Assembly: GCA_000004985.1 (NCBI GenBank)
Contig: GG739099.1
Strand: one strand, 5' to 3'
Length of the DNA: 7,960 nucleotides
From: Naegleria gruberi
Lineage: Eukaryota
The notes beneath the pieces are model-generated. The model worked only from the letters and a program-made list of their open reading frames with translations. It was not told the DNA's origin and did no database searches. The position numbers and the translations under genes are program-made. Below are positions 13 to 6,895 of this stretch, piece after piece; position 1 is the first letter of the stretch, and each line of letters begins with the position of its first letter.

Positions 13-777
13 TCAAGAGTCAGGTTCACATCCTGGACAGATATTATCTCTTTGTGGTGCAACTCCAAACTTTTCGACATGTTGAGTAAATTTCAAATAA
101 TGGTCAATAAATGATTTTTGATAAAGACCTCCAGGATAAATGATATCTCTATAGAGATCGAATGGAGAGCTTACTGATGCAACTGCAACCAAACTCTTGT
201 GATTCAATGAAACTAAGAAATCACTAACCATTCCATCATACGAAATACCTGTTGATACAATCTTTCCATTACTGAATTTTTGCTTTACAACCCAATCCAT
301 AATTTCTCCAAAATCTTGAACTTCATCTCTATGAAAATCATAAGGACGACTTCCAAAACTTGCACCAGTACCTCTAGTATCACATGAAACCACAGCATAT
401 CCTCTGGCAACAAACTTCTTGAATGGAATGCCTCTAATACTGAGCTTTTCTCCAAACAAGTAATTGAATGGAAAATTCACTTTAAATGATCTATTATATC
501 TAGTAATATGCAAAAGAGTTGGTAATCTATGATTTTCATTCACTGCTCTATAAGGTAAATACAAATCACAGGCAATCTTTACACCATCCCTCATTGTTAA
601 ATATTCATCACTAAAAATTGTTCCATCATTTTCATACAACATTCGGGGAAAGTAATTCTTTGATCGGAATGTTGGACAATCACTGCCAAGCACACCACAA
701 CAACTCACGATCAACAATCCCAAAACCAAATACAATACAAAATTCATAACATTTCCTTGTGAATTGTTTTTATGCAT
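13..777 (-). CDS. CocE/NonD-family alpha/beta hydrolase (peptidase S15, X-Pro dipeptidyl-peptidase-like), N-terminal part with signal peptide. The 3' end lies beyond the window start.
   Basis: 254-aa ORF on the minus strand with no stop before the window edge. The N-terminus MHKNNSQGNVMNFVLYLVLGLLIVSCCGVLG is a hydrophobic signal or anchor. An alternative start is the Met at 747. The motifs MRDGVKIACDLYLP, GYAVVSCDTRGTGASFG, DEVQDFGEIMDWVVKQKFSNGKIVSTGISYDGM (GxSxG nucleophile elbow) and SSPFDLYRD…YPGG are collinear with the Rhodococcus cocaine esterase CocE N-terminal hydrolase domain (MRDGVRLAVDLYRP / GYAVVIQDTRG / GNVGMFGVSYLG / ADLYRAPWYGPGG). Confidence 0.85.
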   Translation of the reverse strand: MHKNNSQGNVMNFVLYLVLGLLIVSCCGVLGSDCPTFRSKNYFPRMLYENDGTIFSDEYLTMRDGVKIACDLYLPYRAVNENHRLPTLLHITRYNRSFKVNFPFNYLFGEKLSIRGIPFKKFVARGYAVVSCDTRGTGASFGSRPYDFHRDEVQDFGEIMDWVVKQKFSNGKIVSTGISYDGMVSDFLVSLNHKSLVAVASVSSPFDLYRDIIYPGGLYQKSFIDHYLKFTQHVEKFGVAPQRDNICPGCEPDS

Positions 778-1059: not shown

Positions 1060-1746
1060 TTGAATCTTGTTCCTTTTGTTACAATTAAACATTTTTCACT
1101 GAAATTGTCTCATGTTACCGACACAAATCTCTCTACAAAACTAGCAGATTCCGACAATAATCCTTCGTTATGGAGCCAAATACCTAGCGAATTAATTATT
1201 CACATTGCCATGTATTGTCAATTGGGAGAGCTGGTTGGTTTTTCACAAGCAAATTCTGCACATTTGAAAATACTTTTTAATCAAGAGCCGAGAGAAAAGA
1301 AAATTGAAAAGCCTGTAAATGATGAAAGTGTAGATTTTCATTATGTTCAAACTCATATCTGGAAACCTTTAGTTTGTTTCTATTTTCCAAGATTCGAAAA
1401 GGCACTTAACATTAAGAATTGGATGCATGTTTTGAGAAGGAGAAAAGCTCACATTAAGATTCATGGTAATGATTTCAGAATTCCATCTGAAACATGGAAT
1501 GATGAAGACAAAAGTTTGAGTAGTATTAGTTTTATTGAGAATTGTGAATATATTTACAAGTGCCCATTACAATTCAGCATGTTAGAGGATACTTGGTCAA
1601 ATGAAAGTTTTTGTAAGGAGTGTAAAAAGACTGTGTATAATGTTCAAGATGTTGAGACATTCAAAGATTATTCTTCAAAAGGATATTGTGTTTCTCTGGG
1701 ATATGACCAGTTCAAAGAGGGAGAAATGTGCTACTTTGATGATTAA
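1060..1746 (+). CDS. Hypothetical protein with an F-box-like motif and a Cys-containing C-terminal region.
   Basis: 228-aa ORF. Residues about 36-72, SLWSQIPSELIIHIAMYCQLGELVGFSQANSAHLKIL, fit the F-box pattern (L..IP.EL..HI…L……KIL). The C-terminus has spaced Cys residues (CEYIYKC…CKEC…C…C). It is convergent with the PPR gene (stop TAA at 1744-1746). There is no other recognisable domain and no upstream ATG in frame. Confidence 0.45.
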   Translation: MNLVPFVTIKHFSLKLSHVTDTNLSTKLADSDNNPSLWSQIPSELIIHIAMYCQLGELVGFSQANSAHLKILFNQEPREKKIEKPVNDESVDFHYVQTHIWKPLVCFYFPRFEKALNIKNWMHVLRRRKAHIKIHGNDFRIPSETWNDEDKSLSSISFIENCEYIYKCPLQFSMLEDTWSNESFCKECKKTVYNVQDVETFKDYSSKGYCVSLGYDQFKEGEMCYFDD

Positions 1747-1932: not shown

Positions 1933-3654
1933 TTACCAATATCCGTCACAACTACATTTACCATCTTTAAAATGGTGATATCTATTTGCATCTCTAATAA
2001 TTATTTCAACATCCATCACTTTTGAAATGAATTCTGTGGCAGTATGACAATCATTGCAAACACGAAGATTTGCCGCTAAAATAATTGATTTTCTCTTTGG
2101 ATTCAAAACAAATGCATGAGCTGTTGCTGTCTTCTCAGCATGTCTACAAAGTGAATCTAATTTTTCTTCTTCAGTTAATAATTTTGAGTTAGTTACCCAT
2201 CTAGTATCTGGCTCAAAACCAGCTTGGATTATTTTTCTGTAAATCTCCTCTCTCATTTTCTCAATTTCCTTAAATCTTTCATATTTTTTTGATCCAGAAA
2301 CAAATTGGTATGATTTACCATCCTCTTCCTGATACACAATTCCTGGTATCTTTTTAATTCCATTTTCAATCATTAATTGTCTTATATTGTCAGCTTTTTC
2401 AACATTATTGAACTTTCTACATCCTGCCATTAAAGCACTCCACAAAGAATAATTCATTCTTTCGTTAATTATTTTTTCTGCCTCATGAAATCTTCCTGAA
2501 CGGGCAAAGACATCAACCATTACACAGTCTACAATTACTGATGGATTATGGTTGTATTTTGTCTTCATTTCTCCATAAAGTTGATTCGCCTCATCAATCA
2601 TTCCACAATGTGAAAATGTGTTCAGCATGATTGTGAATGTGTTCTCGTTCATTTCAACGTTCTTAGCAACCATTTCATTAAATAAATTCATGGCTTGTGT
2701 TCCTTTTCCATGTTGAGCGTAACATGACAACATGTTATTATATGTTATGATGGATAGACGTTTTTGGGCTGATTCTTCGACAAGCTTTTCAAATAGTTGT
2801 TGTGCAGTTGATTGATAAGCAATTCTTGAATAAAAGTAGATCATAACACTGACTATCTCCTCATGAACATCCATTCCTTTTAGTTTGAGTTCATCAATAA
2901 TATCCAGTCCCATCTTTCTAGCAAAATATTCTCCACATCCAGCCAACAATATGAGGTAGGTTATCTTATCTGGTTCAATATGTTCCTTCATCTCATTAAA
3001 AACCACCATTGCTTTGTTCAGTCCATATTCTATTGTAGATGGGTTTTGGGTATTTGTTGTACTTTGAATATGTGCTTGAATTAAACAATTCCAAATAGCA
3101 ACATCGTTCATTAATCCCTTTGATTTCAATTGTTCACATTCCTCAATTGAAACCTCTGGATGTCCACATTTTGTGTAAAAGTTGACAATAGATGCTAAAA
3201 GTTCAGAAGAGTGATCTTTCAAGGTGCCAGTTGCAAGTTTGTGAATTGCCTTTCCTTCTTCAAACAATTTTGAATCAGCACACGCTGTGAGTAAAATGTT
3301 AAAAGTGGTAGAGTTTGGTTCAACACCACAATCTTGCATTTCTGTGATTATTTTAATTGATTTTGGAACTTCCTTAGTTTGAATATGTGCTTGAATTAAA
3401 CAATTCCAAACAGCAACATTGTTCATTAATCCCTTCGATTGTAATTTTTCACATTCTCCAATTGACACCTCTGGATGTCCACATTTTGTATAAAAACTAA
3501 TAATTGATGTCAAAAGTTCAGTAGAGCAATCTTTAACATTTTCTATTGCTTGTTCATGAATCAATTTACCTTCTTCAAACAAATTAAAATCAGTACATGC
3601 CTTAAGTATAATAGTATAGGTTGTAGAATCAGGGTTCAATCCAAATTGTTGCAT
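1933..3654 (-). CDS. PLS-class PPR protein with DYW deaminase domain, C-terminal segment. It contains two full P-L-S triplet repeats plus P2-L2-S2, a short E region and DYW, and has its own stop.
   Basis: 573-aa ORF. Motifs match the plant PLS consensus: P (VWNCLIQAHIQ…EMQDCGVEPN), L (TFNILLTACADSKLFEEGKAIHKLA) and S-like (LLASIVNFYTKCGHPEVSIEECEQL, compare YAKCG). P2 is TYNNMLSCYAQHGKGTQAMNLFNEM, compare WNAMIAGYAQHGHGKEALELFEQM. Then come L2/S2 (CGMIDEANQLYGEM…, VMVDVFARSGRFHEAEKII), an E-like region (LWSALMAGCRKFNNVEKADNIRQLMIENGIKKI) and DYW. The frame is open upstream into the N gap at 3695, so the 'M' at 3654 is an internal Met of a repeat unit. Confidence 0.9.
   Translation of the reverse strand: MQQFGLNPDSTTYTIILKACTDFNLFEEGKLIHEQAIENVKDCSTELLTSIISFYTKCGHPEVSIGECEKLQSKGLMNNVAVWNCLIQAHIQTKEVPKSIKIITEMQDCGVEPNSTTFNILLTACADSKLFEEGKAIHKLATGTLKDHSSELLASIVNFYTKCGHPEVSIEECEQLKSKGLMNDVAIWNCLIQAHIQSTTNTQNPSTIEYGLNKAMVVFNEMKEHIEPDKITYLILLAGCGEYFARKMGLDIIDELKLKGMDVHEEIVSVMIYFYSRIAYQSTAQQLFEKLVEESAQKRLSIITYNNMLSCYAQHGKGTQAMNLFNEMVAKNVEMNENTFTIMLNTFSHCGMIDEANQLYGEMKTKYNHNPSVIVDCVMVDVFARSGRFHEAEKIINERMNYSLWSALMAGCRKFNNVEKADNIRQLMIENGIKKIPGIVYQEEDGKSYQFVSGSKKYERFKEIEKMREEIYRKIIQAGFEPDTRWVTNSKLLTEEEKLDSLCRHAEKTATAHAFVLNPKRKSIILAANLRVCNDCHTATEFISKVMDVEIIIRDANRYHHFKDGKCSCDGYW
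1936..2346 (-). other. DYW-type cytidine deaminase domain, from the PG box to the C-terminus.
   Basis: PGIVYQEEDGKSYQFVSGSK (PG box, compare PGCSWIEV…HVFVAGD). HAE at 2142..2134 (HxE zinc/catalytic motif, compare HSEKLAIAFGLI). CNDCH at 2058..2044 (CxDCH). Then …RDANRYHHFKDGKCSCDGYW followed by the stop at 1933-1935 (compare RFHHFKDGSCSCGDYW). Confidence 0.88.
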
Positions 3655-3694
3655 TTCTGTGATTATTTCAATTGCTTTTTGAGGCTCATTGTTT

Positions 3695-3744
3695 NNNNNN
3701 NNNNNNNNNNNNNNNNNNNNNNNNNNNNNNNNNNNNNNNNNNNN
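3695..3744. other. Assembly gap of 50 N inside the PPR-DYW coding region.
   Basis: Run of n. Reading frames are open on both flanks (…KMKTKG | gap | NNEPQKAIEIITEMQQFG…). Confidence 0.95.
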
Positions 3745-3745
3745 A

Positions 3746-4351
3746 TCCTTTGGTTTTCATCTTTTCAAATTGATCAATAGCTATTATTGGATGTCCGCAT
3801 TTTGTGTAAAAATTAATTATACTATTGTTCAACTCTATTGTAGGATTATTGAGCACTTGACCAGATGCTTGATGCAGTAATTTACCTTCTTCAAATAATT
3901 TTGAATCAGCACATGCTTTAAGTAAAATGTTAAAAGTGGTAGAGTTTGGTTCAATACCATAATCTTGCATTTCTGTGATTACTTCAATTGCCTGTCGAAC
4001 TTCCTTATTTTGAATATATGCTTGAATTAAACAATTCCAAACAATATTGTTCATTAATCCTTTCGATTTCAATTGTTCACATTCCTTAATGGCTGTTTCT
4101 GGATGTCCACATTTTGTGTAAAAGTTGACAATAGATGCTAAAAGTTCAGAAGAGTAATCTTTCAAGGTGCCAGTTGCAAGTTTGTGAATTGCCTTTCCTT
4201 CTTCAAACAATTTTGAATCAGCACACGCTGTGAGTAAAATGTTAAAAGTGGTAGAGTTTGGTTCAACACCATAATCTTGCATTTCTGTGATTATTTCAAT
4301 TGCCTGTCGAACTTCCTTATTTTGAATATATGCTTGAATTAAACAATTCCA
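3746..4351 (-). CDS. Same PPR-DYW gene, middle segment of about two P-L-S triplet units. The frame is open into the 50-N gap on its 3' side, and a frameshift lies on its 5' side.
   Basis: Translation is WNCLIQAYIQNKEVRQAIEIITEMQDYGVEPNSTTFNILLTACADSKLFEEGKAIHKLATGTLKDYSSELLASIVNFYTKCGHPETAIKECEQLKSKGLMNNIVWNCLIQAYIQNKEVRQAIEVITEMQDYGIEPNST…TKCGHPIIAIDQFEKMKTKG, then the gap. In this frame a TAA at 4378..4376 closes it upstream, so homology resumes only from the W codon at 4351. The 'M' at 4282 used by the ORF track is an internal repeat Met. Confidence 0.8.
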
Positions 4352-5393
4352 TCCATAATACTTTTTGATATCTTTTTACATTCATTAATTGCAATATCTG
4401 GATGTCCACATTTTGTGTAAAAATTAATAATTGATGTCAAAAGTTTAAGAGAGCTATTATCTCTCAAAGTATTATTTGCAATTTTGTGAATCAATATTCC
4501 CTCCTTATATAATTTCAACTTAGCGCATGCGGTAAGCAAAATGGAGAATGTGGTAGCGTTTGGAGTAACCTTGAATTGTTTCATTTCAGTAACTGTGTCG
4601 ATGGCTTTTTGTATTTCATTTATTTGAATGTATGCTTCAACTAGACATGTAAAAGAAACAACATTCATTAATCCCTTTGATTTCATCTTTTCACATTCGT
4701 TGATTGCAATCTCTGGATGTCCACATTTTGTATAAAAATTAATAATGGATGTCAATAGTTCAACAGAGCAATTATCTTTCAAAGTGTTAGTTGTAATTTT
4801 GTGAATCAACTTTCCTTCTGCAAATAACTTGGTATTAGCACAAGCTGTTATGAGAATGTTAAAAGTTGCCGAATCTGGACAAATACCATTATCTTTCATT
4901 TCATGAATAACATCAATCGCTTTCTTAATATTGTTCTCTTGAATATATGCTTGAATTAAACTATTCCATGTTATGATTGTCATCCATTTTTGTTGTTTCA
5001 CTAATTCAATTTCTTCTATTACCAACTCTGGTTTTCTTAATTTCAATGCAAATGATATAATTGTCGTTGATAATTGAGGACTTGCTAAATTACTCTTTTT
5101 TACAAGTTGGTAAAGTGTCATTCCAACTTGAATGTTTTTCTTAACAGTGGCTGCTTTTAAAAGTGGGATATAAATTGCATAGTTTGGTTCAATATCTTTG
5201 CCTTTCATATTCAACACAATTGCTAATGCTCTTTCCAAATCATCATTCCAAATACAATTATTAATAAAGTGAGTGTATAAAAATACATTCATTGCGCCAT
5301 GTTGCTCTAATTCATTAACAATTTGTTCACAAAATTCAACTTGNGTATTACCTACAGAGCAAACTTTAAGTATGGCAGTTAATGTAAATAAAT
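4339..5393 (-). CDS. Same PPR-DYW gene, N-terminal-ward segment. It has divergent P-type motifs, then two P-L-S triplets, and ends at a premature stop created by the frameshift. The 5' end is lost in the 1.5-kb N gap.
   Basis: 317-aa ORF from the Met at 5292. The frame stays open upstream to the gap edge (…TAILKVCSVGNTQVEFCEQIVNELEQHGA-MNVFLYTHFINNCIWNDDLERALAIVLNMKGKDIEPN…); the n at 5344 falls in ACN, which is Thr whatever the base. The last S-like motif reads LLTSIINFYTKCGHPDIAINECKKISKSIMDGIV* instead of the canonical …NECEKMKSKGLMNVV…WNCLIQ. That indicates roughly 12 nt missing plus a 1-nt frame change between 4342 and 4375. Confidence 0.8.
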
Positions 5394-6895
5394 NNNNNNN
5401 NNNNNNNNNNNNNNNNNNNNNNNNNNNNNNNNNNNNNNNNNNNNNNNNNNNNNNNNNNNNNNNNNNNNNNNNNNNNNNNNNNNNNNNNNNNNNNNNNNNN
5501 NNNNNNNNNNNNNNNNNNNNNNNNNNNNNNNNNNNNNNNNNNNNNNNNNNNNNNNNNNNNNNNNNNNNNNNNNNNNNNNNNNNNNNNNNNNNNNNNNNNN
5601 NNNNNNNNNNNNNNNNNNNNNNNNNNNNNNNNNNNNNNNNNNNNNNNNNNNNNNNNNNNNNNNNNNNNNNNNNNNNNNNNNNNNNNNNNNNNNNNNNNNN
5701 NNNNNNNNNNNNNNNNNNNNNNNNNNNNNNNNNNNNNNNNNNNNNNNNNNNNNNNNNNNNNNNNNNNNNNNNNNNNNNNNNNNNNNNNNNNNNNNNNNNN
5801 NNNNNNNNNNNNNNNNNNNNNNNNNNNNNNNNNNNNNNNNNNNNNNNNNNNNNNNNNNNNNNNNNNNNNNNNNNNNNNNNNNNNNNNNNNNNNNNNNNNN
5901 NNNNNNNNNNNNNNNNNNNNNNNNNNNNNNNNNNNNNNNNNNNNNNNNNNNNNNNNNNNNNNNNNNNNNNNNNNNNNNNNNNNNNNNNNNNNNNNNNNNN
6001 NNNNNNNNNNNNNNNNNNNNNNNNNNNNNNNNNNNNNNNNNNNNNNNNNNNNNNNNNNNNNNNNNNNNNNNNNNNNNNNNNNNNNNNNNNNNNNNNNNNN
6101 NNNNNNNNNNNNNNNNNNNNNNNNNNNNNNNNNNNNNNNNNNNNNNNNNNNNNNNNNNNNNNNNNNNNNNNNNNNNNNNNNNNNNNNNNNNNNNNNNNNN
6201 NNNNNNNNNNNNNNNNNNNNNNNNNNNNNNNNNNNNNNNNNNNNNNNNNNNNNNNNNNNNNNNNNNNNNNNNNNNNNNNNNNNNNNNNNNNNNNNNNNNN
6301 NNNNNNNNNNNNNNNNNNNNNNNNNNNNNNNNNNNNNNNNNNNNNNNNNNNNNNNNNNNNNNNNNNNNNNNNNNNNNNNNNNNNNNNNNNNNNNNNNNNN
6401 NNNNNNNNNNNNNNNNNNNNNNNNNNNNNNNNNNNNNNNNNNNNNNNNNNNNNNNNNNNNNNNNNNNNNNNNNNNNNNNNNNNNNNNNNNNNNNNNNNNN
6501 NNNNNNNNNNNNNNNNNNNNNNNNNNNNNNNNNNNNNNNNNNNNNNNNNNNNNNNNNNNNNNNNNNNNNNNNNNNNNNNNNNNNNNNNNNNNNNNNNNNN
6601 NNNNNNNNNNNNNNNNNNNNNNNNNNNNNNNNNNNNNNNNNNNNNNNNNNNNNNNNNNNNNNNNNNNNNNNNNNNNNNNNNNNNNNNNNNNNNNNNNNNN
6701 NNNNNNNNNNNNNNNNNNNNNNNNNNNNNNNNNNNNNNNNNNNNNNNNNNNNNNNNNNNNNNNNNNNNNNNNNNNNNNNNNNNNNNNNNNNNNNNNNNNN
6801 NNNNNNNNNNNNNNNNNNNNNNNNNNNNNNNNNNNNNNNNNNNNNNNNNNNNNNNNNNNNNNNNNNNNNNNNNNNNNNNNNNNNNNNNNNNNNNN
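5394..6895. other. Assembly gap of 1502 N. It contains the 5' end of the PPR-DYW gene.
   Basis: Run of n. The minus-strand ORF is still open at 5393. Sequence after the gap (6896 onward) has stops in all minus-strand frames. Confidence 0.95.

Follow-up and report, generated by a model that had tools for sequence, protein, structure and literature searches.

A Naegleria gruberi PPR-DYW gene with a single hybrid E motif and a derived deaminase domain

Introduction

PPR-DYW proteins are currently being engineered as programmable C-to-U RNA editors, and the way in which they set their catalytic domain on the target can be seen in the 2026 RNA-bound structure of a consensus protein (consPPR-DYW, 9kfx), where the paired E1 and E2 motifs are argued to fix a register of four nucleotides and to help to form an RNA tunnel (PMC13324415). 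The pair touches nucleotides -3 to +2 in this complex, for the most part via the backbone, and together with the DYW domain it forms the tunnel for nucleotides -3 to -1; A2 of E2 stacks on base -1, and N9 of E2, which is conserved in nature, contacts the phosphate of the edited nucleotide. Substitution of the lysine at the last position sharply reduced editing in both PPR56 (K34A) and consPPR-DYW (K474D). Here we describe a gene in a stretch of 7,960 nucleotides from Naegleria gruberi (contig GG739099.1 of assembly GCA_000004985.1; the whole stretch is called the window below) that encodes the C-terminal end of a PPR-DYW protein with one E motif in place of two, and with several substitutions in the deaminase domain.

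Some of these substitutions fall on residues that have been studied in plants. In the inactive structure of Arabidopsis thaliana OTP86, the serine of the HSE triad (S893), together with S828, tethers K915 to the catalytic glutamate (for the role of S828, see PMC7611903). K915 is a DYW-specific lysine that ion-pairs with this glutamate, and in the reading of the OTP86 authors it serves activation rather than catalysis. In the RNA complex the serine touches O2 of the target base; OTP86 S893A affected editing only slightly (as summarised in PMC13324415), whereas changing HSE to HAE is elsewhere reported to lower editing (PMC9478123). In crystal structures the aspartate of the DYW tail bonds a conserved lysine 30 residues upstream (D958-K928 in OTP86, D608-K578 in consPPR-DYW), a salt bridge by which the C-terminal tripeptide is braced. 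An alanine at the HxE position is also found in mouse cytidine deaminase (A66) and APOBEC3A (A71), and among plant DYW domains HAE has been reported as specific to the DYW:KP type, which carries out U-to-C editing (PMC9478123). The DYW:KP type has KP in place of PG, M95, HAE, an altered C-terminal triplet and an essential active-site lysine (PMC9478123, PMC11713852); mutation of that lysine to alanine in KP6 abolished U-to-C editing and greatly stimulated C-to-U editing.

About ten DYW-type PPR genes per genome and two mitochondrial C-to-U sites are known in N. gruberi and Acrasis (PMC4202320). On balance, our analysis of the sequence leads us to favour the view that the gene described here is a constrained, derived member of this family, whose C-terminal module still folds and probably still deaminates.

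Results

The gene and its relatives

The features of the gene on which the argument rests are given here in order of translation, with coordinates in the window.

1933-3654, minus strand: open reading frame (ORF) of 573 codons and a stop, encoding PLS-type PPR repeats, one E motif and a DYW deaminase domain
2452-2547, minus strand: last PPR motif (S2), about residues 370-401, ...VIVDCVMVDVFARSGRFHEAEKIINERMN; boundaries approximate, by alignment with S2 of relatives and of consPPR-DYW
2350-2451, minus strand: single hybrid E motif of 34 residues (402-435), from MAFFT, a hidden Markov model (HMM) and AlphaFold2 helices
2395-2400, minus strand: deletion junction E419/K420, ambiguous by a few residues, from MAFFT and the HMM
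2341-2355, minus strand: PG box KKIPG, residues 434-438, with P2 and G3 canonical
1936-2349, minus strand: DYW deaminase domain, residues 436-573, from Pfam PF14432, PDB sequence matches, AlphaFold2 and Foldseek
2335-2337, minus strand: V440, DYW position 5 (OTP86 S828), from the 231-sequence alignment
2134-2142, minus strand: H505-A506-E507, that is, a zinc ligand, alanine for the usual serine (OTP86 S893) and the catalytic glutamate, from translation and alignment
2071-2073, minus strand: A528, DYW position 91 (OTP86 K915, PPR56 K91, KP6 K713), from alignment
2044-2058, minus strand: C533-N-D-C536-H537, the CxxCH zinc-binding element, intact, from translation and alignment
2032-2034, minus strand: E541, DYW position 104 (OTP86 K928, consPPR-DYW K578), from alignment
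1936-1956, minus strand: C567-S-C569-D570-G571-Y572-W573 tail, with the CxC ligands of the second zinc intact, from translation and alignment

The minus-strand translation runs in the order ...FARSGRFHEAEKIINERMNYS-LWSALMAGCRKFNNVEKADNIRQLMIENGIKKI-PGIVYQEE...LCRHAEKTA...RVCNDCH...KCSCDGYW to the stop at 1933-1935. The window is AT-rich eukaryotic draft sequence (about 32% GC), and each of the other five frames of the same stretch holds 27-65 stops; since 573 codons stay open against that background, we take the ORF to be real coding sequence and not a product of chance. It forms the 3' portion of a longer, fragmentary gene. Pfam recognised PPR_2 (6.8e-46), PPR (2.6e-33), PPR_1 and PPR_3 as well as DYW_deaminase (PF14432; 1.2e-33, 115 bits against a cutoff of 24), and the sequence matches in the PDB were 9kfx, 7o4e and 7w86. 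The E_motif profile reached 25.3 bits, under its cutoff of 27.3, with only positions 23-59 of its 63 matched.

Relatives were gathered by a word-indexed search and by an exhaustive HMMER search, both of which ranked N. gruberi proteins top; some relatives are referred to by numbers such as P0001. Closest was N. gruberi XP_002677116 (P0097; NAEGRDRAFT_33704), with 74% identity over its 132-residue model and about 73% on the DYW-domain alignment, followed by N. gruberi XP_002682650 (NAEGRDRAFT_45424; 59%) and N. gruberi P0001 (53%). Further matches were to DYW proteins of N. gruberi and Willaertia magna and to environmental sequences, and then to plant proteins at 30-36%. The model of XP_002677116 starts just after the PG box and is probably truncated. 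No protein identical to the translated ORF was found in the protein searches, and the P2-L2-S2-E segment, used as a query for homologs, gave no match at E <= 1e-10.

From these comparisons the gene is the S2-E-DYW end of a PLS-class PPR-DYW protein, and belongs to a derived Naegleria subfamily. It has the PLS-type array, the PG box, the HxE(x)nCxxCH signature with its catalytic glutamate and the second zinc site that are features of the PPR-DYW family; it lacks the E1+E2 pair, the combination of Ser69 and Lys91, and the aspartate of DYW with its Lys104 partner. The subfamily, a grouping that we define here as the heterolobosean HAE subfamily, is marked by HAE, V or C at position 5, loss of K104, D20S/A and monophyly, all of which hold for the present gene. 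We infer that the protein is, or very recently was, a deaminase of the mitochondrial C-to-U RNA-editing type.

The E region is one repeat unit short

Between ...MNYS and PG there are 33 residues (LWSALMAGCRKFNNVEKADNIRQLMIENGIKKI). An earlier note on this DNA, made from the letters alone, had described a compact E region of about 33 residues following ...EKIINERMNYS, composed of the first half of E1 fused to the second half of E2; the text that it quoted is correct letter for letter, and the fusion that it proposed is borne out by a clean gap of 34 residues in both of the alignments that we made. With MAFFT, in which the C-terminal 235 residues were aligned with 15 relatives, 34 codons (102 bp) that are present in every relative are absent from the gene between ...NNVE and KADN..., where N. 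gruberi P0001 reads NNIE[IAEKIFEILTKIEPTDPSPYILLSNIYMFKGNNT]KASEIRGLM. What remains, in the E-motif numbering of the RNA-bound consPPR-DYW crystal structure (PMC13324415), is E1 positions 1-18 (YSLWSALMAGCRKFNNVE) joined to E2 positions 19-34 (KADNIRQLMIENGIKK), which again makes 34 residues exactly. An HMM built for the canonical S2-E1-E2-PG region matched the gene in two pieces, states 5-57 and 85-108, and the seven residues NVEKADN were matched by both of them, so that the junction lies at equivalent positions of two repeats, as from an unequal crossover.

It can be seen from the length of this region that the deletion is found in no other sequence of the sample. Among 195 relatives matched over the full S2-to-PG span, the length deviated from the HMM by -10 to +10 residues, and the value of -34 was reached only by the present gene; a similar deletion was seen in none of the 195. 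Two N. gruberi HAE paralogs, P0096 and P0001, have models long enough to include the E region, and both keep full E1 and E2; the distance from W to KKxPG is 63 residues in these two and 29 in the gene. Judged on the relatives that reach the E region, the short E therefore appears to be private to this gene and not a trait of its lineage. In the literature searched, which did not cover Knoop and Rudinger 2010 or Rudinger et al. 2011, there was no description of a natural DYW protein with a single E motif.

In terms of structure, the 102-bp in-frame deletion took one helical hairpin's worth of linker, namely helix B of E1 and helix A of E2, and left one hybrid, TPR-like motif of 34 residues. Helix A of E1 is kept, with R12 (R413), a conserved phosphate contact, and with substitutions at position 2 (S for V), position 6 (A for T) and position 13 (K for V); helix B of E1 is lost. 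Helix B of E2 is kept as well, with R24 (R425) and the last-position K34 (K435), and thus the RNA-backbone contacts R12(E1), R24(E2) and K34(E2) are all retained. The catalytic domain would now lie one repeat nearer to the PPR tract, which would alter the distance, canonically four nucleotides, from the last nucleotide read by the PPR motifs to the target.

A missing exon or intron at the E gap was considered and rejected, as the ORF is continuous across the junction and splicing cannot restore what is lost relative to the homologs.

A further explanation is that the gap, and perhaps also a frameshift further upstream in the gene, comes from mis-assembly of the draft scaffold. There are indeed runs of N at 3695-3744 and 5394-6895, and the gene is full of 315-bp repeats. 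However, no tandem repeat comes closer than about 600 bp to the E region, which is itself unique sequence; the overlap between E1 and E2 at the protein level is only the seven residues NVEKADN, too little for an assembler to be expected to collapse them; and the exact in-frame loss of 34 codons at equivalent repeat positions fits unequal recombination and not the mis-joining of reads. We consider an assembly artefact very improbable.

The HAE state and its history

The earlier note had also pointed to HAE in place of the near-universal HSE, and this reading holds at residues 505-507. In an alignment of 231 complete DYW domains, on which all residue counts given here are based, DYW position 69 is S in 218 sequences, A in 6, G in 3, C in 2, T in 1 and P in 1. 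The six sequences with alanine are the present gene, P0001, P0096, the environmental P0002 and P0006, and the KP-like P0172; the 132-residue N. gruberi P0097 likewise has HAE.

A neighbour-joining tree was built from the DYW domains, with the KP-type sequence as root. At 94% bootstrap it joins the present gene to three N. gruberi paralogs and to three environmental sequences; for the Naegleria part of this clade the value is 99.5%, and within it the gene paired with P0097 at 65%. The clade is placed among HSE paralogs of N. gruberi and W. magna, with 44-56% support for the nesting. HAE thus appears on the tree as a derived trait of one heterolobosean subfamily that has been kept through several duplications. 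The earlier note had suggested that such features might mark the donor clade of a horizontal gene transfer; this suggestion is not supported, because a clade nested in heterolobosean HSE paralogs implies that HAE and its companions arose after the acquisition and would carry no mark of the donor.

One environmental member of the HAE clade, P0020 (164 residues), has lost the histidine of HxE, with LYPEKMA for LCxHAEKxA, and shows 8 departures at conserved columns. This sequence has the look of a member in true decay, and as such provides a contrast to the present gene.

Since HAE has been tied to the DYW:KP type, it could also signal a changed chemistry, with a reverse (U-to-C) or otherwise altered reaction, and in plants the alanine is both reported as DYW:KP-specific and important for KP activity. 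Nevertheless, the PG box and V95 of the gene are of the PG type, and the one KP-like sequence in the sample, P0172, differs from it, with no PG box, M95, the tail GDSP and no DYW tail. Moreover, the lysine that is essential for U-to-C editing in KP6 is alanine here, HAE is normal in other cytidine deaminases (mouse A66, APOBEC3A A71), and only C-to-U sites have been reported in the mitochondria of N. gruberi and Acrasis (PMC4202320). An altered reaction is, we consider, the least probable of the explanations discussed here, and KP-type reverse editing in particular was rejected on the PG box, V95 and the absence of the lysine.

Residues of the active-site latch and of the tail

All three of the residues proposed to hold OTP86 autoinhibited (S828, S893 and K915) are non-polar in the gene, where they are V, A and A. 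At position 5 (OTP86 S828), S or T is found in 213 of the 231 sequences and V in 5, including the gene. Position 91 (OTP86 K915) is K in 219, and alanine is found there only in the present gene. Within the subfamily, V or C at position 5 and A at 69 are found throughout; K91 is kept in P0096, P0002 and P0006, and is S in P0001 and I in P0097. D20S, S69A, R112V and the loss of K104 are common to the gene, P0001 and P0096, and when these two paralogs are compared the change of H23 to Y together with loss of K91 is common to the gene and P0001 only. At the HP dipeptide of positions 23-24, where H is present in 213 and P in 163 of the sequences, the gene has Y-E. The DYW domain of the subfamily has replaced residues that hold the active site inhibited in plant DYW:PG enzymes, and the active site of the gene would be without the autoinhibitory Lys-Glu latch.

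The C-terminal CSCDGYW described in the earlier note was found as stated at residues 567-573, with G in place of the D of DYW and a D one residue earlier. Tails of the form x-G-[YF]-W occur in about 11 of the 231 sequences, and the order DG occurs once. Position 104 (OTP86 K928) is K in 199 sequences and glutamate in the gene, and position 134 (OTP86 D958) is D in 200 and G in 11, among them the gene. These two positions co-vary: 198 sequences have K/R104 with D/E134, 22 have lost both, and 5 and 6 have lost one or the other (Fisher p 8e-21, a value not corrected for shared ancestry), in agreement with the salt bridge of the crystal structures. Because of this co-variation, and since the gene has E104 and G134, the GYW tail is best regarded as one visible end of a lost salt bridge, at the level of the subfamily: no member of the HAE clade has K104 (A, T or E stands there), and D134 is missing from most of them (N or G).

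Joint loss of K104 and of the DYW aspartate was also observed in several unrelated lineages, including Arcella and some environmental sequences, and looks like a recurrent way to dismantle the tail salt bridge.

Around these changes the catalytic apparatus is intact. The zinc ligands are all present, as are the catalytic Glu70 and the Leu93 that stacks on the base, which agrees with the earlier note as to CNDCH (residues 533-537) and the final CxC. The second zinc site (H537, H560, C567 and C569) falls on columns that are invariant or near-invariant in relatives, Y135 is retained together with W136, which covers the second zinc, and the spacing from HAE to CNDCH is 28 residues, as in all relatives. 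The DYW positions that dock on the PPR tract (94, 117, 121, 122 and 124) are R, R, R, Y and H; they are equivalent to R568, R591, R595, F596 and H598 of consPPR-DYW, so that four of five are kept and the fifth is changed from F to Y at 122.

Predicted structure of the C-terminal module

The last 340 residues were modelled with AlphaFold2 from 61 homologs, with a mean predicted local distance difference test score (pLDDT) of 95. The hybrid E motif was predicted as a normal helix-turn-helix (model residues 169-181 and 185-197) with a block pLDDT of 88-92. Placement of the DYW domain relative to the PPR tract was judged by the global template modelling score (TM) and root-mean-square deviation (rmsd) against RNA-bound 9kfx, and N. 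gruberi P0001, a protein with both E motifs, was modelled as control. With Foldseek, the model of the gene matched 9kfx_A over 374 columns (340 + 34), which again gives a deletion of 34 residues, at TM 0.83 and rmsd 3.4 A, and the control model gave TM 0.91 and rmsd 2.0 A. The architecture is thus predicted to be preserved, yet measurably distorted.

Constraint on the gene and the state of its upstream part

The most serious competing explanation is that the gene is a recently inactivated paralog, either a young pseudogene or a non-catalytic remnant, in which the deletion, K91A and an upstream frameshift are lesions. Constraint was gauged by an amino-acid relative-rate test and by a calculation of ORF survival. 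Of the 35 columns that 85% or more of the sequences conserve, the gene departs at 7, which ranks it third of 231 and would suit a decaying copy; however, N. gruberi P0001 also departs at 7, six of which are the same as in the gene, and most of the departures are common to annotated N. gruberi paralogs. Where the three N. gruberi paralogs agree, 7 changes are unique to the gene and are mostly conservative, and P0096 and P0001 have 7 each. Counts of substitutions in the gene and its sister P0097 against three outgroups were 10 v 11, 15 v 8 (p = 0.21) and 8 v 11. The DYW domain is not evolving faster than that of its N. gruberi sister.

The ORF offers 307 single-nucleotide routes to a stop, and stop-free survival falls below 5% above a neutral divergence of about 0.03 per site; that 573 codons remain open in AT-rich DNA with so many routes to a stop therefore limits any neutral drift to about d < 0.03.

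The part of the gene upstream of the ORF is repetitive and incomplete in the draft, with the following features.

3063-4952, minus strand: upstream PPR array of 315-bp (105-residue) tandem units, consistent with PLS triplets, with 74-87% mutual identity
3695-3744, no strand: assembly gap of 50 N inside the gene
4339-4352, minus strand: frame break between the ORFs at 4339-5292 and 3686-4282, with about 10-13 nucleotides fewer than the sister repeat copies

The frame break gives a stop at 4339-4341, the next ORF begins at the ATG at 4282, and the break lies about 690 bp upstream of the start of ORF 1933-3654. It could reflect a true lesion, the boundary of a gene or a mistake in the draft assembly. 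Other runs of N are a single base at 5344 and 1502 N at 5394-6895. Some short stretches of the array are nearly identical between copies, which points to recent duplication of triplets within the gene or to gene conversion.

Inactivation would be in keeping with the uniqueness of the deletion among 195 relatives and of K91A among 231, with the loss of PPR56 editing on K91A, with the frame break near 4345, and with the fact that heteroloboseans hold far more DYW genes than known editing sites. On the other hand, the frameshift could be an error of the draft assembly, all catalytic and zinc residues are intact, and the deletion is in frame, takes exactly one repeat unit and leaves a fold that is predicted with confidence. 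Given these points and the absence of rate acceleration relative to P0097, we regard inactivation as a possible explanation but not as the one to be preferred.

Neighbouring genes

Two other reading frames were characterised in the window.

13-777, minus strand: CocE/NonD-type (Peptidase_S15) hydrolase, N-terminal part only, beginning with a hydrophobic, signal-like stretch and running off the left end
1060-1746, plus strand: ORF of 228 residues that separates the hydrolase from the DYW gene and is convergent with the 3' end of the latter

The best match of the hydrolase (67%) was on an environmental contig, and its named matches, at 35-46%, were mostly bacterial or metagenomic, with one from an oomycete; it may be a gene of bacterial origin in the amoeba. 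Beside the best relative of the hydrolase, P0242 (contig L001), the upstream gene is unrelated and there is no DYW gene, so that this comparison yielded no orthologous locus. The 228-residue ORF, whose C-terminal part is Cys-rich, includes an F-box-like stretch (LWSQIPSELIIHIAMY...), and no Pfam match to it was found at E <= 0.01.

Discussion

The view that we favour is of a constrained and derived PPR-DYW gene, the C-terminal module of which would still fold and probably still deaminate. The substitutions in its active site may well be compatible with activity, by analogy with the minor effect of OTP86 S893A, the assignment of K915 to activation and the stimulation of C-to-U editing by the Lys-to-Ala change in KP6. 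The earlier note had held that the unusual features were lineage-specific and not decay. For the DYW substitutions this stands, as they are shared with N. gruberi paralogs and there is no acceleration of rate; the short E, which is confined to one gene, does not fit the description. The distinctiveness that it claimed was upheld on alignment with relatives, with HAE in 6 of 231 sequences, x-G-[YF]-W tails in about 11 of 231 and a short E in none of 195. To its list can be added K91A, S5V, K104E, the upstream frameshift and the assembly gaps in the same gene.

Several observations weigh against the view that the module is active. PPR56 K91A abolished editing of both targets in E. coli, the opposite of what the equivalent change did to C-to-U editing in KP6, and OTP86 D958A and the equivalent DYW1 mutant were impaired. 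The gene has lost helix A of E2, including position 2 (A2) and position 9 (N9), and the E1-E2 linker is thought to fix the precise register of four nucleotides. There is no natural single-E DYW protein among the 195 relatives, and as P0096 and P0001 have both E motifs there is no conservation favouring the short form. [quoted passage not shown] Because of the frame break near 4345 and the two N gaps, neither the complete ORF nor a possible targeting peptide can be recovered, and redundant paralogs are plausible because there are about ten genes for two editing sites in N. gruberi (PMC4202320).

A bolder proposal is that the gene encodes a working, naturally minimised editing module, with a single hybrid E motif, an edited base one nucleotide nearer to the PPR footprint and a constitutively open active site free of the latch. 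We think this unlikely. If true, it would give the first evidence from a natural protein that the E1-E2 pair can be dispensed with, and would provide a ready-made compact scaffold for designer C-to-U editors; a natural protein with a single hybrid E would directly test both the obligatory two-motif linker and the essential Lys-Glu latch. If the gene is merely a dying paralog, it is of interest only for turnover within an expanded family that was acquired by horizontal transfer. The Naegleria subfamily has lost the K104-D134 salt bridge and the latch together, which gives independent support for the couplings drawn from plant crystal structures.

Comparison with known systems

Compared with plant DYW:PG proteins (A. 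thaliana OTP86, 7O4E/7O4F; consensus PPR-DYW, 9KFX; Physcomitrium patens PPR56), the gene is alike in its predicted fold, its DYW part aligning with 7o4e and 7w86, and in the catalytic and structural zinc sites, the catalytic glutamate, the stacking leucine, the PG box and four of the five residues of the DYW-PPR interface (the fifth being F to Y). It differs in having one E motif where plants have E1 and E2, in V, A and A at S5, S69 and K91, in the absence of the K104-D134 salt bridge and in Y-E for H23-P24.

The plant DYW:KP proteins (for example the designer KP2, KP3 and KP6) resemble the gene only in the alanine of HxE. The gene keeps the PG box and V95, is without the essential lysine (KP6 K713) and shows no sister relationship to the KP type in the neighbour-joining tree. 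By these comparisons, the HAE of the gene appears to have arisen independently of DYW:KP, inside the heterolobosean family.

It is to the N. gruberi HAE subfamily (XP_002677116, XP_002682650 and P0001) that the gene is most alike, with the PLS-E-DYW architecture, a PG box of the KKIPGIVY form, HAE, V at position 5, no K104, DYW domains that are 66-74% identical and a non-canonical tail, which in the paralogs is NDYW, GGYW or GNYW. The differences from these paralogs are A at position 91, where they have K, S and I; E at 104, where they have T, A and T; the DG order of the tail, found only in the gene; and the single hybrid motif, where P0096 and P0001 have two E motifs. We conclude that the gene is best labelled a previously unseen variant within the already known Naegleria DYW family.

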